A DNA stretch of 64,000 nt from Psammoneis japonica (GCA_008632985.1 QPGO01000086.1:124001-188000), one strand, 5' to 3'; shown: positions 10,082-61,449, counted from the stretch's first letter. A program made the numbers and translations. The notes: generated by a model not told the origin, from the letters alone.

Positions 10082-11949
10082 GTTGTCTGCAGCAACGTTG
10101 ATCACTGTCGAACGCGTAAAACTCTGTGCAGTTCTGTATGTTCCTTCGTACGTACCCACACTGTTCCGCCAAAACCGTGCAGTGTCAGTGCACGTTANAT
10201 TTAACAGGTTGTGAGATGCATCTCCCCCAAGCGTGTGCATGCTCAACTTGTTGAACAGACAAGTCAATGTTGCCAAAAGGAAATCTTCTGAGGTTCCTTG
10301 TGCTGCTCCTCATTCCACTTGTTCTGGTGTGGTTTGTCTGGAGGAAGCTCTCAAGAAACTCCAATCTTGTGATGTGACAGGTGCCTGCTGATCCACAACA
10401 CAATTTGTGTGAACCAGATGAGTCACTCGAAAGAGTGAGACAAAAGAAGGTTGGTGAGATCAGTGACAAGTGCCCGCTCATTTCCAAAATGTCGCCCAAC
10501 TGACCACACGTCAGAGGTCAGAGGATCCAAAGCATTTTCTCTTTGACAGATCTGCTTCTGGGTCTCTCACATTTTAAACTCATTCCAGATGATCCAGCAA
10601 ATGTTCTGCCTTCATGTGGTCCATGTTTGTCAGAGTCATTGTGGCCTTGTGGCTCGTCAGTCTGCTTGGGACTCTTGGCATCACTGCCACTCACTTCTGG
10701 GCTCTCAATGTCCTGTGACTTGCAAACACATGGACACGCGCACTTGCCACCATTGCTGCAATCAATCAAATCATCGAGTGCACATGCAGCTCACAAACAC
10801 TCATCACAAAGTGCTCCACATGGGTGTGATGACGTTGCTCTTTTTTTGTTGTCATTTTCCAACATCCAAGCCGGTCCATGCCCCAGCTGTTGACTGTCTC
10901 TGGAGTCCGATCCAGAGGCGACACATCAGCACAGTGCCGCTTCTCAAGAATGAGTGGTCATTGGGTCTCATGGCAGAAAAGTGCTGCTGCCAAGTTCCTG
11001 GCCTCACAAACAACTCCTTTGACATCCACCACAAGCCCAAATTGCTCTCGTTTGTTCTCAGAATCAACACCCTGGAGTTTCATGAGGGGTCCACAGACCC
11101 CACTCTCACTCTCATGCCAAAGGCAGGAAAACTGACATTCAACTTGTGATGCAACATGTTTGTGCCACACTTGTCAAAGCACAGACAGTCTTTTCCTCTT
11201 GCTCTGGCCCACCACTTGGGTGCCAAATGCTGCTTGTTGATTGGAGATCAACCCTTTGTGCAAGTGTGCTTGTTCTGTCTCTGAAATCAGCTCCCAGGAC
11301 CTGCCAAATGCCGTGGTCTTTTGTGCAGCAGTGACATGTTCCACTGCCAGAGATGCAATCTCTTTGTTGCCCATGATGGAGAACACTGGTGTGGCAGCTT
11401 TGGGATGTTCAAGCACTTCCCAACTTGTGCTCATTTCTGTCAGGGTCTCTGACAGCTTCTTCATTTTGTGGCACCTCTGCAGCCACAGGGCTCTCCACTG
11501 ACCTTGTCCTCCCATTCCCCACATTGGGAACACTGGCACAGATCCTTGACCTTTGTTCTCTCATGTGAGCTCTTGACTTCACATGTGTCAGTGGCCATTG
11601 CAATGAATTTAAAGGCTGGGGTGGAATGTCATCCCCTCCTCACACACTGCTCTCCCACAATCCTGAGCCCTTGCATGTGCTCCTTGTTGTGCTGTGCAAA
11701 TCTCGCATGCTCTTGCAGCTTTGCAAGGTTGTGGAACCTGCCTCAATGGTCCCACAGCTGCCAGTGGGTGTGGACATCATTGCTGCTTTGCAGCTCAAAT
11801 TTGCAGCTGTCAATCACCTTGCATGGTTGCTCTGACATCACAGTTGTCAGTTGTCTCCACCATCAATTGACTGCAGCCAGAGATTGTGGTTGTTGTTGAG
11901 CTGTTCAGTTTGGTGTGTCAGGGATTTTTCTCCCACGTGCATCAGAAAT

Positions 11950-13700
11950 TCTCATCTGACATCACAAAGAACAGGTCTCATGCCTGTTGTGCCTGAAGTG
12001 AACAGCCTGTGATGGCCTGTTTTAACTTCCAAAACTTCTTGCCTTGTGATGGCTTGGTCATGGTCTCCAAGCATGTTGTCAGCAGAACAATGCCATGCTT
12101 GTGAGTTGCCCTTCTTGGTCTGATCGGCAACAAAGAAATGGCAAATGTTGAGTGCTTGTGACCAGCACTTGCTGGCCCTCTTGCAACCACCAGTCTCCAG
12201 TGGGATGGTGCTCTTGTTGTCCTGGCGCTGGATGTTCTTGTTGATTGGGGGTGCCCTTGGTGTTCCATGAACAGCTTGGTCCACAGTGTCACAGCAGTCA
12301 TGGCATTGTCAACTCCAACAAGCTCAGCTTCTGTGATGCTTTGGGTGCTGAGCTGCTGGCGGTGCTTTGAGATGGCCTGCACTGCTTCTCACCCATTGTC
12401 ATGACTCCTCTGGTGTGGCTCTTGAAATTGGGATGCACTGCAAATGATGCATTCCACATGCTGCCACTGCCTTGACAACTCAGAGGTCTTTTGTGCTCAA
12501 CTCATGGACTTGTCTTCATTTCTCATCTGGCTTGCGCACTTGAGACAATGGACTGGCTTCTCCCAATCCTTGTTGGCGGGAGCTCTCACTCATGTGCACA
12601 ACACAGTGATGGTGGGATGCACATCTGCTTGCCCTCTCTTGGACAGGAACAGCCCGTTGGCCACTCACATGTGGAAGGTCTGACAAGCCTTCACCTCTGA
12701 CAATGTTTTCCCACCAGCAGTGTCAAATGTCTTCTCTCTGGCTGGTGTCATGGCAGTGTCCATGCTCTTTGTCTTTTCCGGAAATTGATCAATCACCCTG
12801 CAAACATGGTCAACCACATTGACTCTCACTTTGTCCTTCTGTCTGAAGTCTGGGGTCATGCCAAGACAGTCATGTCTCTTCCCTCACGCAGAGATGACTT
12901 GCCACCATGGCTGTGCCACACATCTCTTGTTCAGCCAGCTCAGAAACTTGTTGTTTGCTTTTGGGTTCTTGTGGCTTGACAGCAAGTTGTGCACATGAGA
13001 TCTGACAGTGTTGCTGTTTGACCACACAATTGGCAATGCATGGATTGCATGGGGGGTTGAACTTAAAAACCACATCTTCTCCAAGTCTTTGTAGAGTTTG
13101 TTTTGTGCCACAACACAGCCATGACAAGCACACCACAGATGGCTCTGATGACTTGGATGCAATGCACTCTTTTCCATTTCTCTCTGAGACCACACAAGGC
13201 TTGCACAGGTTGGGCACTCATGCAATTTTCATCATGATCCAGTCTTTGTCTTCTCCAGACCCCAGCATCACAGTCTGTGCAAATGTGCTTGCAGATTGTC
13301 AGCACTCATTTTGTTGCATCCTTTGTGGGTGTTGACAATCATCATCATCAATGTCCCTTCCAGGGATGCAGCAGGGCAGGCCAACTCATCTTTTCCAGCC
13401 ACGGTCAGGCCAGTTTGCCATTTTGGTGGGCCATTCACCCTTTTGTGTGACTGTCTTGTTTCTTGGCAAGGAACATCAAGGCTGCCATGGCCTTGGTCCT
13501 TTCAGTCAAGGTGACATCCTTGGCTGATGCTGGCGCTGAGCATGCTCAGTTGCGCGATTGTTCAATCTCTTCTCTGAGGCATCATGCGCCTTCTGGCCAA
13601 TCACTTTGAGGCCTTCATGGAGCAAATGTTGCTGGGCAAAACACATGTGCCCTCTCCACTCCAGAGCAGTCAGTTGTCAATCTCACACATGAAGAACAAA
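11950..13700 (-). mobile_element. Degraded Ty1/Copia (CoDi-like) RT-RNase H remnant; limits approximate
   Basis: STQSITEAELVGVDN..LWTKLFMEHQG, QDNKSTIPLE, HCSADNMLGD, FNPPCNPCIAN resemble Copia RNase H and RT motifs. Confidence 0.8.
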
Positions 13701-15123
13701 AGTGCCATTGCTCTCCCTGCTTCAGACCCACACTTGATGTTGTCCTTCAGATTGGGGCTCACATGGTCGCTGCACTCATGCTTGCATCACTTTTTCACCA
13801 CTTTGCTGGCTTCTGCCACTCCTCCTGCAAATCAAACTTTCTTCTCCATGTGTTTGTGCGACTTCATGTCAAAGGATGCACTGCTTCTTGGGGTTCTGCC
13901 AGGTGCGTGGCTCTTGCTTCTTCCTCCAATCATTGCACTTCCCATCTCTGTTGTGCTCCACAGAAATGGATCACCATCACACTGTTGGAGGAGAGTTTCC
14001 AGGCCTGTTTTTGCCATGGAAATCACAAGAGAGTGTCAGTGTGGACCCAGAGAAAAATTTGAAAGGCTGTTGTGAAGGATGCAAAGTGGGAGGACACATG
14101 CTGTCCTGTTTGACAAGCGGTTGACTCTGCTTTTGTTTAATTTTCATGTGATGCCTCGGAGGAAAGTGGATCTTGATGAGCCCTGCAAAACACCACAACC
14201 AATCTCTGGCAGCTCCTTTTGTCCCAAGAAGCCAAGCACCACTGCCATCAATGATTGGATGTCCAAGGATGCAGAGCTGCCACAGAGGTGGATGAGAGCA
14301 CAGAGAGGATGGACCTGATGAAACGAGTGTGTGGCCAGTGCACATTGCATCCAGCAAACAAGGAGATTGTGGTTGGTGATGACAACACTGGGGGAGCTTT
14401 TTGTGACAACAAGCCGCACCCTCCAAACTTGGTTGCAATGCATGCCAGTGTCCAGACAGGGCTTGGTGTCCTGCAAACAGGGAACAATTTTGGGGACAAC
14501 ATCAATCTTTTGAATTGGCGGGCGGCAATTGCAATGGCTTGATGACAGCTGGCAAGAGTTCAGTGGAGGTTGTTGATGAGACCACCCTGCTTGTGCCAAA
14601 AAGACTTGGTTCTGCTCTGAACTCTGAACTGAGTGGAGAAGACATTGTGTCATTTGAGCAAGCTGCAGCAGATGCACTCAACAAGGGAGTGTGTGATGCG
14701 CGAGCAGGTTTGGGTTGGTGCCACCATGCGTGCATCATGTGGATGACAACATGTGTGCAGACATGTCAGACACCACCCAAATTTGTGGCTGCACTTGCTG
14801 TTTTTCACCAGGGTGAAGCACGGTGAAATTCAGGAAAAATCATGCAAAACATGAGCCATTTGGCCAAATTTGGAGCTAAAAAAGCAGCAACCGGGGCCAC
14901 CCTGGACTTTCCCGCCAAAACCACAAGCAGTGGTGTGTGTCAGAGCACATTGACTCAACAATGGCAAACAACACCAATCATTCTGATTAGTTTTGCTTTT
15001 GTTTGAGAGTGATCTCATCTGCACTGGCACTCATTTCGGTGGTGCCAGCAGGACGTTGCTGGATGTTGGTGGGCATTGCTGCATTCTGGCTGGCAACAAA
15101 ATGCATGAGCGAAGAGTGTTTTT

Positions 15124-16356
15124 GTGTGTGACGGCAGGCTCATCAGGCAACCCAAGAAGCAGGATGAGTTGTTGCTGGCCACCCAGAAGCATCCCAACAA
15201 TGAGATTGTGTTTTGTCCATGGGGCTCAAAAGGAAGTGAGAAAAGCAGTCTTGACGTGCTCCAGCTCCAGGTGGGACCTCACACTGCTGAGCTGTGTGAC
15301 ATCAACAGTTTTTTGGATCATGCTGCATGTCACACATGCAGAAAGGTGCGTGACTTTTGTGAAAATGTGTGTCATTTTGCGGCACACGTGTTGGGCAATC
15401 CGTCCAACAACTTTTGACATTTTTTGTCACAGCACAATTCTACAATGTCTTAAGAATTGCATGGGGCAGGTGCATTTGCAAAAATGTCAAGTGGCAAGAG
15501 GCGCAATTGTGCCACAAACTTGGCCATTTGTTTGATGTTGAAGACAAACACATCCATCAATTAAATTCTTGCACTGCGGAGCTCACACGCAGAACTCTGT
15601 GGGCCCAATGTCATGTGGAGTCCCACCTGGGACTGGAGCCCGTCTCTTGTGCGACATGCCTCAATGGGTTGACCAGGTGCAATCGAAACTAAAATGTCAA
15701 AAAAGTCTGCCAACGATGCTTCAGCGGAGCTTGTGGAGGAAGATGTGTTTGCAGCATGTTGGGTTCAACCCATTGTGGTCATTTCCCTGGAGCCAAGATG
15801 CAATGGCAAGGTTTTGGATGCTGTTCTCACGATGTGTAAAATCCTGTCCTGCAAAAGCAGCTGGAAGATGTGCAGATTTTTGGCAAATCTGTCATGTTTG
15901 AGAGTGGCAATTGACTTGTCAATTCACGTGCTCGACCTCCGATGTGTTGGGGTCCACAGCAGCAATTTCTCCAACAAAGAGGCCCTGGATTACATGACTG
16001 AGTGGGTGCATTCTTTTTCCAACAAAAGGCACAGAAACCAAACAGCACGGCATGTTGTTGAGGTTTTTGATGGACATGTGCTGACACTTCAAAGGGCATG
16101 CATGCTTCTTTGGGAAGGAAAGCCTGGTGATGAGCAGGATCTCAATGCTCGAATGAAAAAAGCAAATGAACTGGAAATGGAGAAAGCTGCCAATGGTTGG
16201 ATGTTGGGTTCACTTGGCCCTTCCTGTGACACAGCAGCGGTTGAAGAGCTTGTTGCTGTGTTGTTGAAGGGACCTCAGAATGTTGAAGTGCCGCTGTCCC
16301 CAAGATGCGTGGGCTCTTCAACACTGGTGCAGGATGCCATCCTCTTGTTGCGCTGA
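15124..16356 (+). pseudogene. Degraded P-loop ATPase-like gene interrupted by a MITE
   Basis: Walker-A-like GSKGSEKSSL immediately before the MITE; the same frame resumes at 15649 and, after one TGA, joins the 15694-16356 ORF. Confidence 0.45.
15253..15644. mobile_element. MITE family A, heavily mutated copy
   Basis: TIRs GACGTGCTCCAG..AGGTGGGAC / GTCCCACCT..CTGGAGCCCGTC; TSD TCTT (15249-52, 15645-48); aligns with 55278-55667. Confidence 0.9.
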
Positions 16357-17469
16357 TCCATTTGAAACCAAAGTGTCCTTGAGGGGGAAAGCAATTGCAA
16401 CTGCACTTTCTAAGAAATCACACATGCTGGCTGGCAATGCCAGATTTAAGACCAGAAAATTGAGTGTCGCCCAACACGGGCATGGGCCCCTCTCTTGGCA
16501 AACAACAATTCATTGTTTCAAATTCTGCACTCATGCTCAAAGCCCCAGCAGCCAGGGTGTGTGCACTGCTGGAAGAAGATGGCCGGTCAATTTGCCAATC
16601 CCCAGTGCTTCAGGCGGGGCACATGCTGGGTGCTGCTGATGAGCTTTGCTCATGGTCTCATCCTGAAAGAGATGGGCCACAACACCACTGCTGCAGAGCA
16701 GTCGTCAGGAGAGCGGGAAGCTGTGCCCCCTCCCGTGCTTTTGCCATTGTGTTCTCCCTCTGTGCACATCTTGCTGCTGCCAAATCAGATCTCACACAGG
16801 CAGCAAAAACCAAATTCTTTCACAAAATCTGTGTTTGGTCAGTTTCTGCTTTGTGATTTTCAGCATGAGAAGGGAGAAGGAGGCTGCTGGGCACACTGTG
16901 GAGTTGAGACATGCTGCGCTTTGATGCATGATTTCCAACCTCCAGCAGCCCCAAACCATGACCTGACCACCACAACTTGCTGTTGCACACATGCTGCATG
17001 TGCAGCACTGTTAAAAATGAGAGTGAAATGACCAAAAGTTTGCAACAACAGCAGTGGCAAATCAACAACAGCCCACCAACAATGTCAGTCAATGGGCACA
17101 GTGACTTTTGAGAAACAAATTGATGCAGGCCCCAAAAAAGGAAGAGCTGAGTGACTCTGATCACTTCACTAAAAATCTGCACACATTTGAAACACAATGT
17201 TCACTGTGAATTGCTCTGCAGGTTCTTGACCCCACTTGTCAACAATGATCAAAATCAAAAACACAAGAGGGACAAAATGTTTGCCCATCACAGCAAAACA
17301 TGCTTCACCACAGCTTGCAAAAACACCTGCAATTGAGCATCAAGCTGAGACAATTTGGAAGCTGGTTTGCACACAAAAAATGGGAACCCCCCCCCCTCGC
17401 CACTTGATTTTGGGTGAGACTGTGCACAAAACTCCAAGAACGAATGACTCTTTGGGCTGTCACCCCACT

Positions 17470-18400
17470 GCTGCACACTTTGTCATTGACAGCTGTTGTG
17501 AGACACTCACAGCAACTTTGCAATTGACACCTTCTCTCATTTTTTTGTCTGTGTGTCATGTCATGGGCCAGCTTCTCCACTCCTCTGCTCTCACCACCCC
17601 CTGCACCAAGATCCTTGTGAAATGAGCAGTTCTCATTTGAATTTGCCACCCCATTTGATGGCAGCTCTGTTTGTGACCAGCAGCTCCATCATTGGGGTCA
17701 ATTTGGCAGCACTCTAAGAAGAAAGCCGCTTGCTTGCTTGCCAGAAATGGAGAAACACACCACCTCAGAAACAGAAAAATGCCATGGCTCAGGGGCTCAG
17801 AATCCTGGCTTTGCTGGCTCTGAGCATCACTGTGAAGAGAAAGAGTTTGTCAAGTCACCCATGATTCCTGATTTTCGCTGACATGCCAAAGCTGTGATGT
17901 GCTCATGAGTTCAAGGTGATGAAGGAGGCTGAATTGTGTGCAATTGTTGCTCCTCATGTGTGTTGTGCTCCTGAAGCTTCATCTAAAAAAGAAAACATTG
18001 TTCAGGAAAGGGCACCACAGAATGTTCTGGGAGGTGCAGTTGTGAAAGCTCTCCTCAGACCCAATGTGCTTTTTGGATGTTTTTGTCTGCACGGCACAGA
18101 GAGCGAGAGGTGTTTGACCCATGCTGTTTGAAGACTTGCAATGCCAGATGCTAGCATGGCATTGGTTGGTGGCACATTTTGAGCTGCAGGTCAGAGAGCA
18201 ATGGCACCAGCCACAGCAACAATTTGGAGAAAGAAATCAAGGTGTGCAGCCCTGCTTCCTTCAGCCAACGGGCACGCGATTGTGAGTCAGAAGCTGTGGG
18301 TGGCTGTGGCTCCCTGGCTGCTGTGCGCAGATCGCAAACCAGCTGCTGAAGATGTGATGGTTTTTGTTTGGATGGGTGTTGACTTCACTTGATTTGGTGC
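17470..18400 (+). pseudogene. Degraded duplicate of the proline dehydrogenase upstream region and 5' CDS
   Basis: Shares blocks with ~25145-25900, e.g. TTGACACCTTCTC, CAGAAATGGAGAAACAC, AGTTTGTCAAGTCACCCAT, AAGCTCTCCTCAGA, TTGAAGACTTGC. Confidence 0.85.
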
Positions 18401-18813
18401 CAGGTTGTGGTGACTTGTGACTCTGTCAATTTTCTCCAACACGTGTGACTGAAATCCAGCTTCGAACACCTGCCATGTGGGTGTGTGAGCAAACAGAAGG
18501 ACGCACGGTGTGTCACATTGTCGCGCGCGCGCTGCTTTGTGCCTTTTTGTTCCAGAGCAACACTGCAGCGACAACCATTGGAGGAAAACCTTTGTGTCAA
18601 ACAAAGGAAGTAAATGAGAATAGATGAGCAGACAAGAGAGCTTGTGGAAGAGATTGGAAGCGTTGATCTCTTAGGAGTAGAAGTGAACGTCGAGTGGAGC
18701 CTCGAAACATTCTCAATTATTTATTTCCCCGCTGATACAACAGCATTGTAGGAGTGCTGTGCGATCAACGGCAACAGCATCTCGTTTATTCTTTTCTTTT
18801 GACTACTATCGCC

Positions 18814-20730: not shown

Positions 20731-20848
20731 CTCTATTAGCTCTAGCTCTCTACTACTAGAGTAGAGAGTAGCTACTAAGCTAGAGCTACTCTAGCTACTA
20801 CTAGAGCTAGCTAGTGGCTACTCTTAGAGTAGAGAGAGAGTAGAGAGT
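20731..20848. repeat. Low-complexity TAG/CTA/AGAG tract
   Basis: ...ctctagctctctactactagagtagagagtagctactaagctagagc...; similar tracts at 461-499 and 22855-22891. Confidence 0.85.
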
Positions 20849-20890
20849 CGTTGTTTCCGCCACCCACAACCCAAAACCGCGACCTAACCA

Positions 20891-22700
20891 TCCATGTGGA
20901 AGATGCACAAAAACAAGAGTACAAATTGAAGAAAAATGAAGAGTTGGAAGGCTCTCAAGTCCAACCTGGCATGTGGTGCAGTTTGAGAAAAAGAAGCAGA
21001 GCAACATTGACAAAATTGTGCTGATGCCCTCATCCTGTGGAGTGACAAATTTTGGTGGGTGTGGGGTCTCTCTTTCTTGCATCTGCTGTGGACTGACTGC
21101 AAAGACGCCAAGTGTCAAGCCTCTGAGAAAATGGAGAAATGCCACATTGTGCAGCTCTTGCAGCGAGTTTTCACAGATGATTTTTTGGCACATTTTTGGC
21201 ATGAAACAGGCAAAATGCTGGAACACATCTCCTCTCAGGACACTGCAGGGGAATCAGAGGAGCAACCCTCTTCACAATGGCAGCAGGCATTTCAATTTTA
21301 GAGGCACAACCAATTTTGTTGCTTTTGTTGCAGAAAATGTTTTCTCTGCATGCACTCGCAAGAGCAACGCACCATGCATTGTGTGCCAAATCGGGAGATG
21401 GGTGCTGAGCAGTTTTGTGCAAAATTGCTGTTGTTCTTCACAATTGCAAGAGCTTTTTCTGAGTGGCTTCCTGTTTTCCACATTCTCATTGACTCAAGAA
21501 GGTTCATCATCAGAGAGGGCAACCATGGCAAGGCTTGAGAAGTGCACCCATGTGCCTCTTGATTTATTCCCAGCTTGCTTGGTTGAAACAAGCATCTGGG
21601 CAGGCTGCAAACAAAACTTCCTTGGACAGATCATCTTGAAAGTCCACATGCTCCCATCTGGTGTGTTCTTTTTTTTCCTCTTGAGAGGTTGCGCATGGAC
21701 AACTGTGGTGCAGGTTGGAGGTGACTGTGCCAGAGATTTTGAGTGTGTTCCCTCCAGCACCTTCTTAAAAATGCAGTCATTGACAGCACTCTGACAATGG
21801 TTGGTGGCAACAGGCTCGGGAGCATGAGCTGCATTGCCCCCAGGGACACATTGCTTTCCTTCATCCCAGCATCACCTGGCCCAGATGAAATCACGCACTT
21901 CTTGTTGACTTTCTCTTGACATCAACTCCAGCCACCCTTGAGAATTGTTCAAAAGTGTGACAGAATCTCACCCCACATGCTGGATCATCCTCAAATCAAT
22001 GGTTTTTCCTCTGCTGAGCTCAGCAAAGCAATTTTTAACCACGCTGATGCCGTTGTTCAAAGTCTTTGTGAACAAACAGTGGATGCCCTTGGATTGGTGG
22101 CAATCATTGCAAGAAATCATCTTTGAGGATGATTGAGATCACTCCATGCTTTGATGTGTGGTTGTCTCTGGTGGATCTTTCAATTTTTCACTGAGCAGCA
22201 GCTGCAGCACGCATGTCTCGATGTGCAAGAAAACACACCTCGTCGACAACGAGCAGACAAGACATCACCCACTCTTTGCATTTTGCATCTGGTGCAACAC
22301 TCTTCTTAAAAGCACATGCACTGCCATGAGTCATTTCACTGTTGACTGCAATGGCTGCTGACCCTGCAACAGCAGCGATGACCACAGCGTGCTTCTTCAA
22401 AAGGCACACCACCAAGCTCCTTGTGCAGAGCTTCTTTGCACAAGCAATGGCGCCATCAATGACAGTGCTCTTGCCAGACCCTCCAGCAGCACAAGTGAGA
22501 AAACAAAGAGTGGCTGGCCTCCACTCTTGGCCCCACTGATTCTTTCCAAATCTCTCTTCACACCACCCATTTTTCTCCTTTTTTCCCTTCAAAGATTGAC
22601 AAACGCACGACAGTGTTCCCATCATGGAAGCATCCATTAATTTGTCGTTGCTCAGTGTTTGTAAAGACAACAAGACACATCCATCCAGCAAAGCTTTCAA
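20891..22700 (-). mobile_element. Hypermutated PIF1-helicase (Helitron-like) remnant
   Basis: FLTCAAGGSGKST (Walker A), AVAGSAAIAV, LLVVDEVCF (Walker B), DFLQ*LPPI near 22100 (GDFxQLPP motif); TpA/CpG depleted. Confidence 0.7.
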
Positions 22701-24908: not shown

Positions 24909-25253
24909 TGTTCTTTGTCAAGTGTCGCTTTTTGTTGTTCTTTGTCGCTTTTTGCAACTCTCGTTATCACGATTACGAAATCTGAATTATGAGAAGCCGA
25001 CGAGTGTCGAGTGTCAACGAAGATAGGAAGCGCATCGCATCAGTGAGCAGAATAAATACTGGACTATGTATCCGCCACCCACAACCCAAAACCGCGACCT
25101 AACCACGACTACTGTCGCTCGCGCAACGAGCAAAATGCAACACGTCGTCGTTGACAGGTGGTGACACACGACTTCACACTTGACACCTTCTCGTTGTTTC
25201 TTGTCTATCAGTAACACAACTTCGATAGTCCTCTCCAATCACTGTACTCCAAG

Positions 25254-27115
25254 ATGTTGGTGAGACGAGTTGCTCAATCAAATTTGCGACCCCTTTTGGT
25301 GGCAGCGCAGTTTACTGCCAGCGGTTCTGGGATCAATTCGGCATGCCAAGGGCAGCCTTCTCAGAAATGGAGAAACACGTCTCAGAAATGGAAAAGCACT
25401 GCGGCTCCGGGGATTCAGAATCCCGCCTTTACAGATTCCAGATATCAACGTGAAGAGAAAAAGTTTGTCAAGTCACCCATTCCTGATTTCACTGACGCCA
25501 GAGTTGCTCATGAATCCAAGACGACGACGGAACTTATTCGTGCAATTGTCGTCCTCCGCCTCTGTCGCATTAAAGCCTTGTCTGAAGAAGGCGAAGTCAT
25601 TTTGGGAAAAGCACGGAGCATTCTGGGGGATACAATCACGGAAGCTCTCCTCAGAGCAACGTTCTTTGGGCATTTTTGTGGAGGCGAACAGAAGAAGGTT
25701 TTCGACCCGTGATTGAAGACTTGCGACGTCACGGCATTGGTGGTATTTTGGATTATGCGGCAGAGAGCGATGATACCAGTCATAGTGATAATGTGGAGAA
25801 AAAATTGAGGTAGACAGCCCCACTTCCTTTAATCAACCCGCACGGGTATACGATTACGAGTCGGAAGCGGTATGCGATTCTCATGTACGCGTGTTTGAGT
25901 CTTGTATCAAGGCTGTGCAGAATGTTACACCCGAAGGCTTTGCTGCACTCAAGGTATCAGCTCTTGGTAATCCGCTCTTGCTAGAACGAATGTCAACGGC
26001 CATTACTGAATCGAAAGAACTGTTCGCAAAGTTTGATACCAACAAAAACTCTGTCTTGACGAGGGAAGAATTCGAAGAAGGATATAGGTATGTTTGTTGT
26101 GATCTCTTGAAAAATACGTGTGGCTTGAATGATGATACAGAATATATCATTACCTACCCATGCCCATCATTTTCTTCCATAATCTTGTAGGCTCTTTTTC
26201 AAGGACGGCGACGAAAAGATCCCAGGTTTGATAGAAAGGCTCGACCCTGATCACACCGGCAAAGTGGATTACATTGCTTGGTCCAAGTTGTTAACACCCA
26301 AGGATCTTCCAGAGCTTACCGTCAGTTGCCGAGAGACGGGTCCACTCGCTTTGGCGACGCCGTCGGACGAGGAATTGGAGTTGATGGAGGCCATGCACGC
26401 CCGTGCCCATTCCTTGGCCAAGCTGGCGTTTGATTGTAAAACGAGGCTCTTGATTGACGCCGAACACGTTCGTTATCAACCAGCTATAGACAATTTAGCC
26501 TTGGAGCTTCAGCGTGAGTACAATGACACCACCAAGACAGACGTTCCCATTATTTTCAACACGTACCAATGCTATCTCAAGGACGTGGCGGATCGATTAA
26601 AGATTGATGTGGAGCAATCAGAACGGAATGGATATCACTTTGCTGCCAAACTAGTTCGTGGAGCTTACCACGAGAGGGAAAATGCTCTCGCAAAGAAACG
26701 TGGAGTTCCGTCACCCATTCATGGTTCGATCGAGGACACGCACAAGTCTTATAACGACATGGTTGAGTTCTTGTTGAAGCACTCGACTGAAACCGACCAG
26801 AGGGTGGAGATTATGTGTGCGACGCACAACCAGGAGAGTATCGAAAAGGCCATTGATGTTATGAATAATCTTGGAATTGACCGATCCGCTCCTACGATGC
26901 ATTTTGCGCAATTGTATGGCATGGCGGATCATTTGTCGTACAATCTCGGAAAGAACGACCTGAGGGTGTACAAGTATGTTCCTTATGGCAAGGTTTTCGA
27001 AGTGATGCCATATCTCGTGAGGAGAGCTCAAGAGAATAGCTCATTGATGGGAAATGCAGCCATGGAACTGTCTTTATTGAGCGATGAATTGAAAAGGAGA
27101 ATCAAACCGTTCTGA
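25254..27115 (+). CDS. PRODH: Mitochondrial proline dehydrogenase with EF-hand; intron 26088-26190; two apparent 1-nt deletions (~25688, ~25800)
   Basis: FFGHFCGGE, GGILDYAAE, AALKVSALG, LLIDAE, FNTYQCYL, AKLVRGAY, ATHNQES, FAQLYGM, YKYVPYG, YLVRRAQEN. Confidence 0.92.
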
Positions 27116-42625: not shown

Positions 42626-45600
42626 TCAATTCAATTCAATCCTAACAATTACCCGACCCTCGTCAGAGCCGGTGCCTATACTAAGCTTTAGTCACGCCTG
42701 AGAGTCCTTTCAATCCACAACCATGGATAGGTTCAGAGCGTCATATAATCTTTTTTCCGATACCAAATAAACACACAATACCGCGCTTGATAGTTGTGGG
42801 GCGGTTTTGACACCGTACAACTGATTCACTCAGGTTCATGCCTGTAACAAGTAGAATCAATCGGTGTCGAGTTCATCGTACGCAGCTATTTTTGCCACCC
42901 TTACTGCGTAGAGCCATTGTCGCTTGTAGTCAATGTCCTCTGATTGTACAGATTCCATTGACTGTAAAAACCAGCGGGCGAGATGATTGGGAGTGACGAT
43001 AGTCTGGGAGTGTCGGTGATACCAATGAAACTCCGCTTCGACTTGATCATCAAGAATTTCGTTTTCTGCTATGAGAGTTTCGGAGACATTTGATTCTGCA
43101 GCACGCATGCGATGTCGCCACATGTCCCATGCGACATTCCAGAATTGTCTTATCAGGCCACTAACCCATCGTAAACCTGTGTTTCGACGGTCTAAAAAGT
43201 TGTAGTAATCCTGTTGAACAGCTGCCCAGTTTGACGAAATGAAGCCCCTTATCATTGCATCGTCCCCGAGAGCGTCCTGCGCAGAAAAGGCTAGATCGAC
43301 AACTGGGTTGTCAAATTCCAATCGAGAAGAATCGTCGTCGTACCAGAGGTGTAGTTTTCCCATGATCCCTCGTCGTAAATCTGGTTGAGTGTGCTGAGTG
43401 CGTAGCCACTTCTCTAACTCCACGATTTTCTTATCCCACAGCACTCTGGCTGATCGGTGACGACATCTGACAACATGATTTGCACTCAGTTCTGGTTCCC
43501 CGCATCTGGGGCATGCAGCGCTGTGGAGAATGCGCCATCGTTCTAAGTTCCTGCCGATCGGAACAAAGCCAGAGGACCACTTTGGTTGCCAAAGTCTGCG
43601 GAAGATTGGGACTCTCTTCATTGCCTTGCCCAACGATTCCCAGTCGATGTCGGCGTGTGCTGGTGTAGATTCCAGCTTCTTCTCCCAGTGGTGTGTCGCT
43701 GCTGGACCGTGGACATGATCGAGCATGGCGTCTTTGTCCCAGGACGTAAGTGTTTTGCCACCCATCTGAATTGTCCAGACAGTCTGCTCCTTCAGCTCGA
43801 AGTGTCGTGTCGTCGGACGAGAATTGAGAGTTTCCCAGCATGCCTTCGCGAGCAAATCCATTTCCACATTGAGCTGTTCCATGTGGGTGAGTTCATGCAA
43901 GGGCAGATCTTTATCTCCACGTGCCTTGACTTTCTCCGGAGCAAAGACTGTGGATGACGCTGCCATCATTCAATGCATCGGTTGAATCAGATCACAGTTC
44001 GTTTGCCGAGGATCATCACAGTCATTGTAAAAGCACGTTCGAAGCACCAGGAGACAATCGCACCCAATTGTTGTCTTGCCATGTCGGATGTGGCACTTGA
44101 CCTCAAGATGAGTGGCGCAGCGTACAATTCCGCACAGTCCTCCCAGTTCTCCGCGACAAGCCGTCATGTCCTCTGCATGACCTGGTGTTTGATTGACCCC
44201 TCTGTGTTGATTGGGGTGACCTGCCTCTGGAAGTAGGATCACAGCCGCAGCAGCAAGTGCGTCTTTAAAGGATCCGTCGGTGACAGCGATCGCGGTTCCG
44301 TCTCGAATTCCTGCCAACAAGGGACCAATGGGTGGTTCAATGTTGTGAGGAACACAAGACCATTCAAAGAATTCCACTTCAGCCGTGGCGACAATCAGCT
44401 TTGTCGTTCCGGTTGGCGTGACACACGAGCCTTTGACAATCACTCTTGTGGGTGAGCTGCCGTCCGGCAAGGAAGACACTTGTCCTGCAAGCTGACAGAA
44501 TTTTCTTCGCCGCTGTCTCCGTTGTGGAGAGACAGAGTAGAGCCTCACACGGTCATCCTGTTCCAATGGAAACAGACGATCGGTGGCTTCGCAATGTCGC
44601 CACGGTGTGAGGTGGCTGTGGGGAAACCATTCTCCCAGGTGTCTGCGCAGGCGAGATCCATCATTTCGGCCTGCCGCAAGGAAGCACATTGTCATTGCCT
44701 CTTCCCACAACTCCCAGCTTCTCTTTGAGGGACATCCTGCTCTTGGCCAAACACATGGAGACTGGCATTGTTCTTGGCCGTGAAGGCATTGCGGCAGCAC
44801 CCGAACCCCGTCTCCTGAGACAAGGTCCAACAGGGCAATGGCTTGTAGCCACATTCGGCAAACATTCAATCGGCGAAGGTGAGCTCCTCTGCAGCCATTC
44901 TCTACAAAGGATTGCATTAAAAAGGAGTCCTGTTCTCATTGAGGGAGAAGACCTGTGGCTGGTGACGTTGGTCGAATGGAATGGGAGTCGCAAAATTCCC
45001 ACAGTGACGCAAGCCAAGACGGTGTCGCGAGAACACTCAGCTGCTTGCAACTGAGATGAAAAATCTGTCCTGGATGTCCAAGTTCCAGCATCACATTTTC
45101 CCACACTGTTTCTAGTTCCTTTCCTGTCATGGAGGGCGAGTCACTCTCCTGCAGACAGACTTCCAGTTTCAAGAGTCCTTGGACTGCACACAGTTCCGGG
45201 ATGCCAACTCCGTTGCACTTTGTCGGTGCAAACAGAATTTTCCGGGGAAAGGACCGAGGGCACCCAATCGCTGGGAGTGCTGCTTGCAACAATGGTTTCT
45301 CAATCATCTCGCAATCTTTCTTGGTTGTGGATGCAGCAGCCAACGGATGTTCCAGCGATTTCACGATTCCCCCGGTTAGCAAGATCCATGCTTCTGTCCT
45401 GTTGAGATGCCCGCAACGAATTTGGTCTGCCCACTTTAGAGTTTTTGCCCGAAAAGCCGCCACCTGTCCTTCCGTGTTGCCATCCATTGCCACCCATGCG
45501 CCCAGTGTTTCTTCTGACTCCCACGGTTCAAGACGTCGGACAGTCTGCCGGACGCCTTTGTGATCTCGAACAGTGATTTCTGCAGGAGCATCCTCCATTG

Positions 45601-48600
45601 TCTGATGTTGCCACCGTTCATTTTCCCATTTGAAGCTTGCTAGAGACCAGTGGCTTTTAAGAGGAACAAGAGCGCTGCCCGTTGCACGTGTGCCGCCTTC
45701 CCAGCAGTCAGCCACACTCTGCATGCCCGTGGACACCTCTTGGCATGTGGCATCAAAATCTGGCGAGTGGCAAGGCAGGTCCGTGTCGTCCACAAAGGTG
45801 CAGCATGCACAATGCACGGCGTTCTTTGAGATTGGGCTGCGTGCTCGAATTCCAAAGCCTTCTTCGCGAAGCATGTTGATTGCGGGAACACTTGCTGCCA
45901 ACCAAATTCCTGGTGCTGCTCCATGCCCCTGAAAAATGCCTTGGAATGGAACTTCTAACGCTGCACAAGGAGTTTCGGAGTCCCCGTGCGCCGTGCGAAC
46001 ACAGTGCTGGATTTGACTTGGCGTTGCTGTCATCATGAATGCTTCGTCCTCTCCAGTGCGATGGACAGTCGCATCAAATCGTGATCGAGAATCCCTTGTT
46101 CCACCACTTGATTGTGCTTTTTGACGATTTTCGGGTCGTCAAGTTTGCCTGCAAGCCGATCCAGTTTCAGCTCAGCTGGTGGTGGGGGAGAGCACCCAAG
46201 TGCACTTTGTTTGCATGCATCAATCCAAATGATCCTGTGATCCGACGAATGGTCAAATTCCCCGAAACCAGACACACCTGCCTTTTCCATCTCGAGAGTG
46301 GGAGAGACAAAAATTGCATCAATCGGGATCTCGGATTGGTTCTTGTCACATGTGGCGACTGGTGACAGTCTTGGGTGGGCTTCTTGGAATGCATCGACAA
46401 GATTTGACGAGCGAGCCCATGTCTGCATCGATGCGTTTCGGACGTTTTTGTTAAAATCCCCTCCCAGAACAATGAGATCTCCCTCCTCCTGCCAGTTTCG
46501 GATCTCTTCCGACAGATCTTCCAACAGTGCTTGGCGGGGGCATCGTAAATCCTTCTTCGTTAGAAGGTGCGTCTGATGCTGTGAATAAACACGGCCGGGA
46601 TTCCCTTGCCTGTCCGTGACTGGGCGACAAGCTGTTGTCATCCTTGTGTGAATTCCGCCTTTCCCTCGGAGCCTTGTCCATGTCCAACGTCCAAGTCCGC
46701 TCTTGTCTTCTCCTTGTGAGATCAGATGATGACGTAATTCCGCCGGAAGAATCTGTCCTGCGCCTTCAAACATGCGTTTCCCTTGTGTTGAATGGCGCGT
46801 GTTGACCGCCACTGAAGAATGTCCCCTGCGAAGTGAAAGCCACCAGCTGCGCCACTGGCAATGCTTGGGCATGCGTTTGAGATTAAGATTCATTTCGATG
46901 AGTCCCATTGCATCGACGTTGTTATCTTGAATCCATTTCTCAATGTCATGATGCTTGTTGTCTTTGCTTGGGTGAGCTGGGAGTCCGCTGATGTTGTGGA
47001 ACGCAAAGCAGTGTGTTCGTTTTTGCTTCACTGCAATGGAGTCTCCCCAGCACTCATCACTCTGTCGACTGTCACTTTCCAAATTTACATCCTCATTTGG
47101 CGGTCGTTGACGGTTCCGCCGAGGATGGTTTGAACTAAGTGTGTCCTCCGGTGCTCTCGGCCTGAGCACCGGTTTGGTTCGTATCCTGCGAACTTTCGTT
47201 CGCTGAATCGGCCGGAACCACAATGCCGACGGCACGGAGCAGTTCCTTCAACTCAAAGAGCTCTTGCTGAGTCTGGGCCAGCTTTTCTTTTGTGGAGGTG
47301 GCAGTGACCATAGAAGCAGCATCTGCCACTTCTTTGGAGGGGTCGCAGATGCGCTCTCTCGTCAGATTGATTCCTGATTTGAAGCGAACCGATTTCCCGT
47401 CCTTCGATTGCCCAGCGGTAGATTTCTCTTCTGATGTTCCATCGTTGGATTCGTCTACACTGTTGGCTTTGGTGTGCTGAGTGTCGTCGTCTTTGTTGCG
47501 CATGCACCCTGCCGAAGAAATGTCTTCAGCGGTTTCAAGGCGTTCAGCAGCCTTTTCAAGGGGCGCGCTCTTTTTCGGAGATGGTTTGCTTTGAGAACTC
47601 TGACGTTTGGAAGCATTGTTTGTCGAGATGTTCGTTTTCCAGTCCTCTTCCAGCCCCCATGGATCATCTTGGATGATCTTCGAGATTGTTGCACTTTCAG
47701 AGGACGTGGTCTTGCCTGTCTCGGCGTCATAGACCGTGGTGCGACAGGCGGCAACACCTGATGATTTGAACCACATGGCAGCTTCTTGACCGAAGATGTG
47801 CAAGGTCTCCGGGATGACTCTGTTCAACTCTGCCATCACTTCAGCAAAGTTTTTCTTTGGGAACGTAACCACGTGATCTGATGGACGGTTCCACTTAGTG
47901 TCGACATGGTGGATGAGGGGAGTGAACTTTTTCTTTTCTGCCGTTGGATCCTGAACGCGTTTGCGCATTAAAAAGTGACGCAGGGACCATTTTTTCCCAT
48001 TCTCGTCGATGATGAGTTCATCGAGGTCTTTGAAGAAGCCAAAATCGACTTGGCCGAGTGCTTGCTCCGTGAAGCAGTGTTGGCGTTGAGCGAGCTCTGA
48101 GATGTTCTTCCTCACATCGTCTGGTGCGCACTGCATCATGGTTGACGTGTGGCATGGAACGAATTGCATGGTGAGTCCGAGACACCTTTTCTTTGCGCCT
48201 GCTCGCCAGAGCCTTTCTGCTGCTGTCCTTGCTTCATGAGCGGAGTGTTCCTCTACATCGATGTGTGGCACCTGAGGATTTTTCTTCGGGTCTGATGGGT
48301 CGCATTTCGGGCACTTGCCGTCTGGTCCTGCAATGGAGCGCCATTGGATTCCTAATTTTTCGGGATGATCTTCAAAACCCAATCTTGCACAAATCGCGTC
48401 GTGCAGCGTGTTCTCGGACATTGTTTTGGAGCTGCCATGTGACCATCCAATGCATTCAACTCGGCATGATTGGCATGGAATGGGGTTCCGTGCGACACTG
48501 AAGCTGCCATTTTCGACATCTTCAAACACACCTTGCAGAGCTTTGCCAAACTCTGGGAGTGGTGCATCGGCATCTCCTGCTGCTAGGAACCGAATCTTGC

Positions 48601-49813
48601 AGCAAGTCGTGTGTTCATCGTTGACTCTTGGATTGAAGCAATCGGTTCCAAGCATGACGCTGAACTTCATCCTTTCTTTCGCAGAGCCTTCTGGAAGGTC
48701 GTCTGCCGTTTTCCATTCACCGCATTCATCACTTGGTTCTTCATCCCAGGTCCCGATGCACACGTTTTTGCCTGATGCCTCTTGAGTGATCTCGAGAGCC
48801 TGTCCCAAAATTTGCTGAGCCTGTTGAAAGGGTTTTTTGGCAGGTTGAAGAGTTGGCCACGCGTTGCATCTGATTTCGTTCCAGATCGGGTCCACTTCTT
48901 CAGTTTCCACGAAGTGTTCGTCGTCCAATTCCTCATCGGATTCTTCCATTTCGACTTCACAATCTTCATCGTCTTCGTCTTCGTTTTCTTTCTTTTTGTT
49001 CGTAGAGTCGTGCTTGTCGTCGTCGGATGAGCATTTTTCTGGAGGGGTTTCTTCCTCTTCGTCTTCTTTTCCTTCTTCTTCATCATCATCATTGCCATCA
49101 TTGTTGTCCTCTTCCTCTGTCGTTGGTGGATCCGCAACTGGGAAATCTGCGTCGGAGTCTTGATCATTTGGATCGGCGTCAAAAGAGGAATCCGCGTGAT
49201 TCTTGCCAACGAGATTTTCCATGTCATCTTGTTCTTCATCATGGGATGTGTTGTGCGTTTCCATTGATTCAGACAAGACTGTCTGAGAGACTTCTGGGTC
49301 AGCCAGTTCGGGGTCGTTGTAATCCTCCAACGGAGCGCAGGTGTTCTTTGTTGATGGGGTTTGTAGATCGGCAGAAACCACATGGTCTTTGTCGGTGACA
49401 GACAATGAGGGAGGGCCTTGTTTTGGATTGTCTTCATGCTGTTGATCTTTGGATCTGCTGCGTGTATGACGGGCTAGAGGTGAACATTGGTAAGGAGTTA
49501 CCGAGCCGGGAGCGATCTTGGCGGTGGTTGCTGTTGTCCATTCACCATCGTTGGGGGAGGTTTCCTTGGTGCGTGAGTTTTGCGTAGAATTTGTACGAGG
49601 CGTTGCCTTCGGATCGGTCGTTTTGCTGTTTGTTTTGTTTGAGTCAGAGGAAGTAGTTTCTGGTGGTTTTGCTTTGCCATTAACTCCTTTACCCTTTTTC
49701 TTATGAGCACCTTTGCGGGGAGAAGTGTTTTGTTTTTCCGCAGAGGTGAAGCGTTTACGACTTGGCATGGTGCGAATTTTTTAGCTTGTTGGTTTGTAAG
49801 TACGTGCGAGTTA
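42626..49813 (-). mobile_element. Non-LTR retrotransposon 1 (APE-RT-RNase H, Ambal-like), inactive: ORF1 49768-47135, ORF2 pieces 47235-42857
   Basis: 18-bp TSD TGCTGCATTGGCGAAAAT (42608-25, 49814-31); (ATTGA)3 3' tail; GGDFN and SDHR (APE), FVDDTD (RT), TDGSFKD..RGELGG (RNase H), CPRCG..HVVRC zinc knuckle. Confidence 0.93.
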
Positions 49814-52920: not shown

Positions 52921-55900
52921 AAACAAAACAAAACCAAACTTCTATATTTTAAGTGCTGCTACGCTTCCACCCTGCAACTCCGGCAACAAGCTAACCCACA
53001 CTCCCAGCACACAATTGGTGCGGCAGGAGCAAACAGCAATCAGCCGAGATCGGCATCACCCGAGGGTGACGCCGCGCCAAAGCAACTTGCAATGGTTCTG
53101 GTGCCTCGTGCAGCCAATCGTTTGGCTTCCCGCATGCTCGATTTAAAGACTGGTTTGAACATTGCCAGCCAGCTGCGAATCCGATGAGTTGAATGCGTCA
53201 AATGATCTTCCACCGAATCCAACAAGAGCGCCTTGTCTCTCGCAAGGCAATCATCCGTGCGAGAATAAATCGCTTTAACCTCTGCTTCCGCGTCTCTCCT
53301 TTGAGAGGACTTTCTAGTTTCCGAATCGTGTCCGTGCACAGCGTCATTGTGAGCACCCCACAGGTCCCACCACTGCTCCCATGTAAAGTTCCCAATGGTT
53401 GCCGCCCAATCCAAACGTTTCTGTTGGTCCGAAAGGGTCCGACAAATGCCGCTCGACGTAAGACAGGAGGTTTGTGTCACACTCCATTGGACCGAAAAAC
53501 GACCATCAAACAACTGACGCCAACCCATTTCTCCTTGGGAATGGAAAACGGAGATGACGCTGTGATGAAATTGCTCAGAGTAAAGAAGCTCATCTCGAAA
53601 CCATGCTTCAACAGCCGACATGATCAAGTCTCGTAAGGAGGGAGACGTGTGAACATCATTGCACTTCTTGCGCAGGCCTTGTAAAAATTTTCTGCGCCAG
53701 GCCTCATTGTGAGGACAACGGAGAATGTGGTCTCTGTCTTCCATGGGGTCCTGACAGTGTGCACAACAGTCCGGACGTGTCGGATTGCATCTGTGCACGA
53801 TTTTGTCAGTGGGTGGAAGATCTTGAACCAGCTTGACAGCACCAACTTTTCGACGAATGTTCCGTGACATCAGTTTCGCATGAACGTCCCAATCGATCGA
53901 CGCGCAGACTTCGTCGGACCAACCATGTTTCTCTTTCATGCAGTCGACCAGCGCGGGACTCGATGCCTGATGTCGCAGGACCGGCTTGCATTTGGACGAG
54001 ACAGTGGCTCCTTGGAGGATCAGATTTGCTCGACAGTGAGGCATGCGGGGGGCTTCAAGAGCATCGCCAGAAAATTGGCCTTGGAATTGTCCTGCTGGTC
54101 TGTCAGCCCGCGTGTTCAACTTCGCCGCCAAGGATGAAGACTCCACAGGAAGAGTGTCATCTTGGTGACCTTTCACCCAATGAATCTCTACGACAGGACA
54201 CTGCAGTTCATCAGTGCTGACCTCGGACACTTGTCGTAGGGAGTGAAAAATTTCATTGACAATGTCCCAGTCTGGTGAGAGGGTGTCAGCAATGTGATGC
54301 CGCCATTGAAAGTCATCGGCTCCTTGAGCATCATCTGCTTCGGGAGGAGAAGGAATCACCTGGAAATTCGAGATGTTGCGAATGAGTGAAGAATTGTCGC
54401 AATGCAAGTCAGCGCCTCTTAAAGATGAAGAACAACATTCTGTCAATCGGGCCAGGAAACGGAGAAAGGACAGCATGCCGCATGCTTCAGCTCGGCAAGA
54501 AGATGGGCAAAAACCAAAAACCGGACCTGCACAATCCACAAGAGGTGTCCCATCGATTGTGATCGTCCAACCAAAGGCACCTCAAAATTGAAGGACCGAG
54601 CCGTCGCCACCCGCTGACGCTTGGTGGGTCGCAAAGATGTCGGCGATTTCAAATGTTGACCGGTGCAGGGACGATTCCCAACAAGATAGAGACCGCAGCA
54701 TAGAGAGAAAATCGTTGGGGACGGGAGGCAAAGTTGGCAAGAAGACTGGAGTGCCAGAAGACCGAATTCGCCAATGACCATTTCTGGTGGCATCCACAAG
54801 CACCGGGGATGCCGCAGGGGAAAGATCTGGGACAGTTTCCAAGGCCGCAATCGAGTCAGCATGACCGTGTTTCACCGGAAACATTTGAAATCCAGCATCC
54901 GAATGGATGCACAAGTGATCTTCGGAGGGTTCGTGGCATGCCACGTGTGACATTCGCATTTCCGTAGCCGGCATGAGCCATTGACCTGGGGGATCTCGGA
55001 GATCAAAAGAACCGTCCTTGCAAAATGAGGAACAAGCTCTTCGCCACTGTTTCCAAGCTCGAGCAGACGGGCGTTGTTGTTCAACGGGGTTCAGAGTGCT
55101 GCGGCTGCTGAAAAGGGACGATCGGCCGTCGACTTTAAAGGAGTCAAGCGAGAGGCCATCTGGAAGGGTGGTGTCCGACAGTGTCAGTGCGTTAAGACAC
55201 AACCGACAGCAGTTGACCCACCTGATCTCCCGATCACTGAAGGCGCCCGATTCAAGTGCGACGTCCACAACACATTGGACGCGTTCCAGGTCTAGGTGGG
55301 ACCTCGCACTACTGAACTGTGACATCGACAGTTTTTTGAGTCTCGTCGTATGTCGCGCACGTAGATTTCTACGTGATTTTTTCGACATTTTGTGTCATTT
55401 TACGGCACACTTGTTGAGCGATCCGTCCAACAACTTTTGACATTTTTTGTTACAGCGCGATTCTACAATGTCTTAAGAATCGCATGGGGCAGGCGAAGTT
55501 GCAAAAACGTCGAGTGGTAAGAGGCATAATTGCACCACAAACTTGGCCGTTTATTTGATGTTGAAGACAAACATGTCCATTGATGAAATTCTCGCACTGC
55601 GGAGCTCGCACGTAGAATTCTACGGGCCCAATGTCACACGGAGTCCCACCTGGGGCTGGAACGCGTCATTGGTCGTCATCTCGCTGTAGCGGGAGGACGC
55701 CAGGCTCGTCACAGTCAATGGAAGCATCAATCCTTGCCAAGAAAGATCGGAGAGACACAAACCAGCGTGATTCTGAATGAGGCAACTTGGCATGAACGTC
55801 TTTTAGAAAACCAACTCCCGCTCCGATCTGCAGCTGAATCCATGACACTGCAATGCAAGACAGAGCTTGAGGTTGTCCTGTCCCGTGCCAGTGACGAAGA

Positions 55901-61352: not shown

Positions 61353-61449
61353 GCTGTCGTTAGCGCAGTTTAATCGCCATAAGACCGCGACGCAGGACAC
61401 CTCCGCCGTCTTTGTTCTATCGCAGAAAGAATTCGACACGGCACGTGGC

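Follow-up and report, generated by a model that had tools for sequence, protein, structure and literature searches.

The stretch of Psammoneis japonica DNA analysed here (GCA_008632985.1 QPGO01000086.1:124001-188000), 64,000 nucleotides long and referred to below as the window, holds four blocks carrying remnants of mobile elements in which the dinucleotide TA is severely depleted, and we describe the rule by which TA was lost, the direction of the change and the kind of process that may lie behind it. Block limits were drawn from the gaps between TAs and from per-kilobase dinucleotide ratios, and the 36,883 nt of the window outside the blocks served as background. Block A (10203..18610, no strand assigned) is gene-free, degenerate and stripped of both TA and CG, with per-kilobase observed/expected ratios (o/e) of 0.02-0.17 for TA, 0.07-0.45 for CG and 1.6-2.2 for TG and CA; 21 TAs remain against about 362 expected when the window background stands in for the ancestor. 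Both dinucleotides have likewise been lost from block B (20921..22638, also without strand), where 5 TAs remain and 74 are expected. Blocks C (43545..49320) and D (52993..64000, reaching the window end), both on the minus strand, are made of dead elements resembling long interspersed nuclear elements (LINEs), possibly a single one in C, and are TA-poor with normal CG; 38 of 249 expected TAs remain in C and 99 of 474 in D. The LINE-like character is seen in the open reading frames (ORFs): ORF 46033-47235(-) in block C matches Exo_endo_phos (E 4e-10), as does ORF 55666-59310(-) in block D, which is 37-39% identical to reverse-transcriptase/endonuclease proteins with a normal tyrosine content.

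The departure from background is narrow in kind and in extent. Strand-symmetrised o/e values in blocks A and B together are 0.04 for TA, 0.20 for CG and 1.81 for TG/CA, compared with 0.62, 0.98 and 1.15 outside the blocks; in C and D together they are 0.15 for TA and 0.85 for CG. All dinucleotides other than TA, CG and TG/CA lie within about 0.15 o/e of background. The block edges are sharp, with TAs tens of bases apart on one side and hundreds apart on the other and the change complete within a few dozen bases, and the ORFs that adjoin the blocks keep normal TA and tyrosine, while the blocks themselves carry LINE endonuclease ORFs, a miniature inverted-repeat transposable element (MITE) and a helicase remnant. 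An exception is the left edge of block A, where a single N occupies 10198, so that this edge may be an assembly joint whose sharpness carries little weight; the 1.2 kb to its left are mildly shifted (TA o/e 0.53, TG 1.46, CA 1.40). Host-type ORFs elsewhere in the window match tubulin, tubulin cofactor D and proline dehydrogenase; for the cofactor D ORF the nearest named relatives are from Fistulifera solaris (a diatom) and Triparma (a bolidophyte), at 40-41% identity, and the top match overall reaches 54%.

The TAs that survive in the blocks are far from a random sample. The original prediction for this DNA, made from the sequence alone, held that the TAs left between 10200 and 18620 were mostly TTAA, CTAA, TTAG or CTAG, that is, YTAR (Y, pyrimidine; R, purine). 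The full count bears this out: all 13 positions that it named are YTAR, and a further 10 TAs that it did not name include 5 more. The interval thus retains 23 TAs, 18 of them YTAR (TTAA 10, CTAA 6, TTAG 1, CTAG 1), and the other five are GTAG at 13092, CTAC at 15441, GTAA at 15837, TTAC at 15991 and GTAA at 18611; in the background only 242 of 1589 TAs (15%) are YTAR (binomial p = 3e-11). The same bias is present in each block when compared with background, with YTAR making up 17 of 21 survivors in A (Fisher p 7e-11), 4 of 5 in B (p 0.002), 16 of 38 in C (p 8e-5) and 31 of 99 in D (p 1e-4). The opposite class, RTAY, which accounts for 462 TAs of the background, is represented by no survivor in A or B, by 2 in C and by 9 in D. 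When all 16 NTAN tetramers were counted in depleted and ordinary DNA, as the original prediction had proposed, equal depletion of the classes was rejected with a likelihood-ratio p of about 1e-16 for each block pair.

To describe the bias, the two strands were modelled as independent targets, and the rate of hits on either was made to depend on the nucleotide that follows the A there, so that four parameters account for 16 tetramers; the ancestral sequence was approximated either by the window background or by unmutated LINE relatives (see below). With the window proxy, per-strand survival of TAA, TAC, TAG and TAT was 0.94, 0.05, 0.27 and 0.015 in A and B and 0.85, 0.36, 0.53 and 0.15 in C and D, and with the LINE-relative proxy the values for C and D were close to the latter (0.81, 0.40, 0.56 and 0.14). 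The rank order of the 3' base is therefore the same in blocks that have received very different doses. The four-level rule fits better than a two-class division into Y and R (likelihood-ratio p 1e-4 in A and B, 2e-6 in C and D). The earlier proposal that TAY is the preferred target, becoming TGY, and that YTAR tends to survive thus stands as a bias in all four blocks and gives way to a graded rule where it implied a plain pyrimidine/purine split. Read on one strand, the rule is T-A-T > T-A-C >= T-A-G >> T-A-A, with TTAA close to untouched: its density is near that of the background, with 9 observed and 8.7 fitted in A, and 14 and 11.4 in D. Since AA, GA and CA are not depleted, the T on the 5' side is obligatory. 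The influence of the 3' side reaches beyond the adjacent base, as A is found at +2 in 0.58 of survivors in A and B and 0.45 in C and D (background 0.26), and is also enriched at +3 among the survivors in A and B (0.52).

Two pairs of copies with a less mutated partner within the window allow the direction of the change to be scored. The first consists of a MITE, present on the plus strand in a hypermutated copy at 15253..15644 in block A (TA o/e 0.11, CG 0.40; TA in the flanks 0.03-0.08) and in a copy at 55278..55667 in block D that is not hypermutated (TA 0.53, CG 1.31; TA in the flanks 0.11-0.15). The element ends in terminal inverted repeats of about 25 bases (22 of 25 positions match in the D copy) and is flanked by 4-base duplications, TCTT around the A copy and ATTG around the D copy, for which reasons we take it to move as DNA. 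Identity between the two copies is 82% and rises to 96% after purine/pyrimidine recoding. The second pair, also on the plus strand, joins 17492..18342 in block A, a hypermutated copy with a TA o/e of 0.06, to an unmutated counterpart at 25147..25910 (0.44); here identity is 65%, or 81% by purine/pyrimidine class only. That counterpart lies just upstream of an EF-hand ORF (25792-26190) and a proline dehydrogenase ORF (26183-27115), so the right end of block A copies a stretch from a host gene region, and this duplicated piece seems to have been mutated along with the rest of the block. A purine/pyrimidine-recoded self-comparison of the window yielded no further copy pairs above a reversed-sequence control.

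Where the less mutated copy of a pair has TA, the other has TG or CA at 28 of 36 sites and keeps TA at 2, the remaining 6 differing otherwise and belonging to the poorly aligned pair. Which of the two products appears depends on the flanks. Pooled over both pairs, YTAY yielded 10 TG and a single CA, RTAR yielded 7 CA and a single TG (Fisher p 0.0012), and RTAY split 3:3. In the MITE pair alone YTAY gave TG 5 times and CA once (gttac/gtcac) and was kept once, and RTAR gave CA 4 times and never TG, in agreement with the earlier claim that YTAY mostly becomes YTGY and RTAR becomes RCAR, with gttac/gtcac as an exception. The companion claim, that the two outcomes are one event seen on opposite strands, is upheld by the survivors: the four-parameter strand-symmetric model fits the 16 tetramers in A (deviance p 0.91) and in B (0.996), and in the LINE blocks, with the LINE proxy, its Akaike information criterion (AIC) is -363, compared with -333 for a sense-only, -309 for an antisense-only and -360 for a free seven-parameter model, the last of which adds nothing (log-likelihood 186.8 vs 185.7). 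Comparison of LINE copies with each other, using contigs from sequencing run X1, counted 508 transitions and 47 transversions, about 11:1.

Further ancestral information came from LINE relatives fetched from metagenome contigs at 30 loci, the coding parts of 26 of which served as the sense-oriented ancestor after L022, L024, L029 and L030 had been dropped as weak or short. TA-poor relatives were sought among these 30 loci and none was found, TA content being ordinary at all of them (o/e 0.47-0.85). Loss of TA leaves a clear trace in the proteins. Tyrosine makes up 0-0.9% of residues in block ORFs (0-0.6% inside C) and 2.1-4.7% in host ORFs, and the block ORFs are long only because the stop codons TAA and TAG cannot occur in them. 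At 30 columns with conserved tyrosine, defined as tyrosine in 70% or more of the LINE relatives, of which a minimum of 8 was required, the window ORFs have cysteine at 14, histidine at 3, phenylalanine at 4, tyrosine at 3, tryptophan at 2 and other residues at 4; cysteine thus outnumbers histidine 14:3 (binomial p 0.013). The phenylalanines are a point apart: in 53040-59310(-) this conservative, TA-free replacement stands at the 4 of 30 columns just counted, or at 7 of 29 in a cruder test, and it could reflect ordinary divergence or selection on the LINE family during a time when it was active and already losing TA.

The loss of CG in blocks A and B appears to be a different matter. There, 122 CGs remain of 558 expected, and their survival depends only weakly on the preceding base (T 0.16, A 0.19, C 0.21, G 0.35), so that CG has turned into TG or CA with little regard to its flanks, as in the decay of methylated CpG; CGs of the less mutated MITE copy correspond to TG at 12 sites, CA at 10, retained CG at 7 and something else at 1. 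In C and D this pattern is absent and CG is intact, with 1017 observed and 924 expected. As these two blocks have lost TA with CG intact, erasure of TA does not need CpG decay, and the CG loss in A and B is probably a separate process, the ordinary decay of methylated CpG. These CG patterns bear only indirectly on the silenced chromatin invoked by the original prediction. Cytosine deamination by the TA mutator itself, specific to TCG, was considered and dropped in view of the weak context of the CG loss.

Nor does repetition by itself seem to set the process off. The state of each MITE copy goes with the block that harbours it. In run X1 the k-mer depth is 150-450 over block D and 36-50 in its single-copy flanks, and over the MITE in D it reaches 35,763-106,521; such depths do not give a copy number. 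Metagenome contigs were also scanned for more MITE copies by exact match to 25 bases, with none found. Run X1 contigs join 55272-55274 to 55667-55669, bridging the MITE, which reveals empty sites in other LINE copies. The MITE, whose depth is by far the highest in the run, escaped mutation in D, which shows that repetition alone does not start the process.

Several features of the window stand beside this account. ORF 22188-22703(-), which crosses the right edge of block B, has a helicase-type AAA_19 match (E 2e-5) and also matches AAA_30, and the part of it that lies to the right of the block in ordinary DNA has no match; it may be a remnant of a Helitron or a PIF1-type element. Pfam was run on 39 ORFs of blocks A and B, and among the 31 from block A no family reached its own cut-off (best E-value 0.013). 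Scans of the window for tRNAs and Rfam families returned nothing. About 75 bases to the left of block B, a low-complexity stretch at 20715-20850, rich in CTAG, CTAC and GTAG, is untouched and holds 26 TAs in 221 bases (o/e 1.67). At its right end, 61001-64000, block D has a GC content of 0.60-0.62, compared with 0.50-0.53 elsewhere in D; this end is TA-poor as well (o/e 0.06-0.33) and is probably a different element from the rest of the block. Ordinary DNA also contains duplications, 1-412 with 1220-1632 (89%) and 39437-39595 with 39591-39749 (96%), neither of them TA-depleted.

What kind of process leaves such a footprint? The window displays a TpA-specific transition signature with a graded neighbour rule, a defined direction, symmetry between the strands and regional action in place. 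Action on the DNA itself, in place and by region, is indicated by the MITE, taken to move as DNA, which has both TG and CA outcomes on one strand and copies whose state goes with their blocks, by the empty sites in other LINE copies, by the excess of transitions and the gain in identity on recoding, by the sharp edges and by the ordinary TA content of the related LINE loci. On balance we lean towards deamination of adenine, acting directly on DNA, on both strands, in place and block by block. In this scheme the dead mobile DNA of all four blocks would have had its TAs turned into TG, or into CA by way of the other strand; the altered A would need a T on its 5' side, its 3' neighbour would govern how fast it is lost (T > C >= G >> A), and A at +2 would protect. 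A TA then survives only if it is a poor target on both strands, which leaves TTAA first and CTAA/TTAG after it. The chemistry would, on the simplest view, be the hydrolytic conversion of adenine to hypoxanthine in 5'-T-A-B-3' DNA (B, any base except A), carried out by a nucleic-acid deaminase, of whatever family, that is brought to the blocks.

A TadA/ADAT-like enzyme, suggested by the original prediction, may be said to fit this footprint partly. The natural substrate of TadA is a U-A-C-G loop, in which the 5' neighbour of the adenine is U, and both TadA with its derived base editors and ADAT2-ADAT3 resemble the process here in that A>G fits adenine deamination and in the 5' U/T neighbour, TA being depleted here with AA, GA and CA spared. 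On the 3' side the picture is mixed. The heavy loss of TAC accords with the 3' C of the U-A-C-G loop. It also accords with the A48E variant of TadA-8e, which edits 'YAC' in the passage cited (PMC13109818). Yet TAT is the context lost most (survival 0.05 for TAC vs 0.015 for TAT in A and B, 0.36-0.40 vs 0.14-0.15 in C and D), and a 3' A is almost excluded. Amphioxus ADAT2 does deaminate DNA and, as given in the section cited, prefers 5'-GAA-3' for adenine and TCG for cytosine (PMC10354150); its motif finds no counterpart in the window, where GA is not depleted, TAA is protected and CG loss hardly depends on a 5' T.

A number of observations weigh against adenine deamination on both strands, or against the rule on which it rests. 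That adenine preference of amphioxus ADAT2, as far as the cited section describes it, is the opposite of the rule found here. The two-strand outcome is the same for A>G on one strand and T>C on the other. Neither ancestral proxy is perfect, and the window proxy misfits C and D (deviance p 0.001), mainly through TTAC (5) and GTAA (19), a misfit that the LINE proxy removes. YTAR sites have also been lost in the copy pairs (3 of 4), and survivors may include TAs newly made from CA or TG; the preference that the rule expresses is strong but not without exceptions. Of the 565 differences between LINE copies 40 were listed, and five of these exchange TG for CA by a double change (at ATAA, TTAC, GTAG, GTAC and ATAA-type sites). 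Descent from TA would put one copy in breach of the rule at four of the five; the sites may equally descend from CG. Divided by preceding base, the cysteine:histidine counts are 9:1 after Y and 5:2 after R, which is the expected direction but not significant (Fisher p 0.54), and a cruder flank test of the same split with three homologues gave p 1.0. Finally, relative to the LINE relatives, the sense strand has lost 33.5 TAs per kb and gained 28.5 TGs, with CA changing by -2.8. A sense-strand bias drawn from this mass balance was rejected, as base composition differs and the survivor model prefers two strands: the A content of the block D ORFs is 0.232, against 0.307 in the relatives, and after normalisation for composition TG and CA are raised alike. 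When the window background stood in for the ancestor and the gains of TG and CA were balanced separately for each flank class, the outcome was noisy.

The alternative that survives best places the target on the other base of the pair. An enzyme of the TET/JBP dioxygenase type, or some other thymine modifier, would mark the T in 5'-V-T-A-3' (V, any base except T) of silenced mobile DNA, and T>C would follow. Because TA is self-complementary, all of the counts fit this scheme equally well, the rule then reading A-T-A > G-T-A >= C-T-A >> T-T-A. The route would run through 5-hydroxymethyluracil (5hmU), oxidised further to 5-formyluracil, which can pair with G. There is precedent in dinoflagellates, where, in the parts of the literature cited, transposable elements are silenced by 5hmU that a TET/JBP homologue produces, and early work on Crypthecodinium cohnii located this base with a preference for TA and TC (PMC11572971, PMC11071213). 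A base-resolution map of 5hmU in Breviolum minutum, however, reports no sequence preference in the portion cited (PMC11071213); TC/GA is not depleted in the window (o/e 1.00-1.19 vs 1.11), and near-pure transitions at near-saturation are not obviously what this chemistry would give. We think a thymine target unlikely.

Decidedly unlikely, in our judgement, is a second possibility, that the mutator strikes every TpA alike and that the flank rule stems from repair, with a lesion such as hypoxanthine:T being removed more efficiently in T-A-A or A-tract contexts. The reach of the protection to +2 and +3 (A at 0.58 and 0.52 in A and B) resembles an effect of local DNA shape more than that of a small active-site pocket and so speaks for repair; the constant rank order at very different doses is compatible with damage and repair alike.

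Editing of RNA is a further candidate. ADARs are RNA enzymes that act on double-stranded, repeat-derived targets and favour U as the 5' neighbour, in which they resemble the process here. A-to-I editing at UA, ADAR- or ADAT-like, would have taken place in element transcripts and been fixed by reverse transcription, and this would suit the LINE-like nature of C and D, the excess of tyrosine-to-cysteine over tyrosine-to-histidine replacements (14:3) and the rise of TG alone on the sense strand, the last of which is confounded by base composition. ADARs, as described in the section cited, prefer a 3' G, in the order G > C~A > U or G > C > U~A, and tolerate A as the second-best 5' base (PMC11276115), whereas the window has T as the best 3' base and untouched AA. 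The ADAR-type pattern as a whole (3' G, 5' U > A > C > G, origin in sense RNA) is thus not seen: the 3' order is T > C >= G >> A, and the two-strand model is ahead of the sense-only one by 30 AIC units. The change is also found on both DNA strands of the MITE, which is assumed to move as DNA and which, in block A, has both TG and CA outcomes on one strand, and the MITE in D stands unmutated inside mutated LINE DNA. An origin in edited RNA is therefore highly improbable. The weakest alternative, error-prone repair synthesis recruited to silent chromatin, which the original prediction had raised, is barely credible: polymerase eta, the Y-family enzyme in question, does mutate A:T pairs at WA motifs (W, A or T; hotspots WA/TA), with many transversions, but AA/TT is not depleted here (o/e 1.19-1.21 vs 1.14), the LINE copies differ by 508 transitions and 47 transversions, the MITE pair rises from 82% to 96% identity on recoding, and TA has turned into TG/CA at 28 of 36 pair sites.

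Adenine deamination of DNA also finds a parallel outside the diatoms, in that the process appears to be of the same kind as the TpA hypermutation of integrated viral DNA in Bigelowiella natans, a rhizarian of the chlorarachniophyte group. In mutation-accumulation lines of that alga, 230 of 231 mutations in two integrated viral regions were A>G or T>C changes, every one of these at a TpA step; coding sequences poor in TpA showed an enrichment for reverse transcriptase and DDE domains, and an ADAT2 homologue was proposed as the mutating enzyme (Mettrop et al., bioRxiv 10.64898/2026.01.13.699255). The main text of the preprint, from which these statements come, gives no flank rule or statement on CpG, although its supplementary tables may hold one (bioRxiv 10.64898/2026.01.13.699255). 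As far as that text allows comparison, the two cases share changes that are almost exclusively A>G/T>C at TpA, giving TpG/CpA, a restriction to foreign or selfish DNA (there integrated giant-virus and virophage DNA) and a direction that runs counter to the usual AT-ward bias; in the window, too, A:T>G:C transitions are confined to TpA, and selfish DNA is affected while neighbouring genes are spared. They differ in dose, since the loss here is near saturation, with a TA o/e of 0.04 in A and B, compared with a Rho of 0.45 for the viral region of B. natans in the same text. Our literature search on TpA loss in diatoms found none.

Repeat-induced point mutation (RIP) of Neurospora and other ascomycetes offers a second comparison, being likewise a transition-only, in-place, block-wise inactivation of mobile DNA with a dinucleotide preference. 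RIP turns CpA into TpA, and so creates TA, and is triggered by duplication; here, by contrast, TA is destroyed (o/e 0.04-0.15) with CA/TG raised, and a MITE copy of high depth is unmutated in block D.

The footprint matches none of the motifs considered, neither U-A-C-G or YAC of TadA, nor GAA of ADAT2, U-A-G of ADAR or WA of polymerase eta. Tentatively, and as a possibility that we would not call probable, this may point to an undescribed enzyme acting on DNA, whether a deaminase of adenine in double-stranded DNA or a thymine modifier specific to TpA. Its guidance to mobile DNA would rely on a cue other than copy number or CpG methylation, and diatoms and chlorarachniophytes would share the enzyme as an old eukaryotic arm of genome defence. 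The neighbour rule makes a search for such an enzyme testable, as a deaminase, dioxygenase or repair factor would qualify only if it gave the order T-A-T > T-A-C >= T-A-G >> T-A-A on oligonucleotides, and the same flank table, drawn up for the 231 published mutations in the Bigelowiella viral regions, could ask whether one enzyme is common to both. A natural editor of A:T to G:C in the T-A context of DNA would also be of interest to work on base editing. For genome annotation, the rule explains the long, false ORFs free of tyrosine in diatom repeats. TpA hypermutation has been reported once so far, in an unrelated alga, and the window adds a further case, now with a quantitative neighbour rule.

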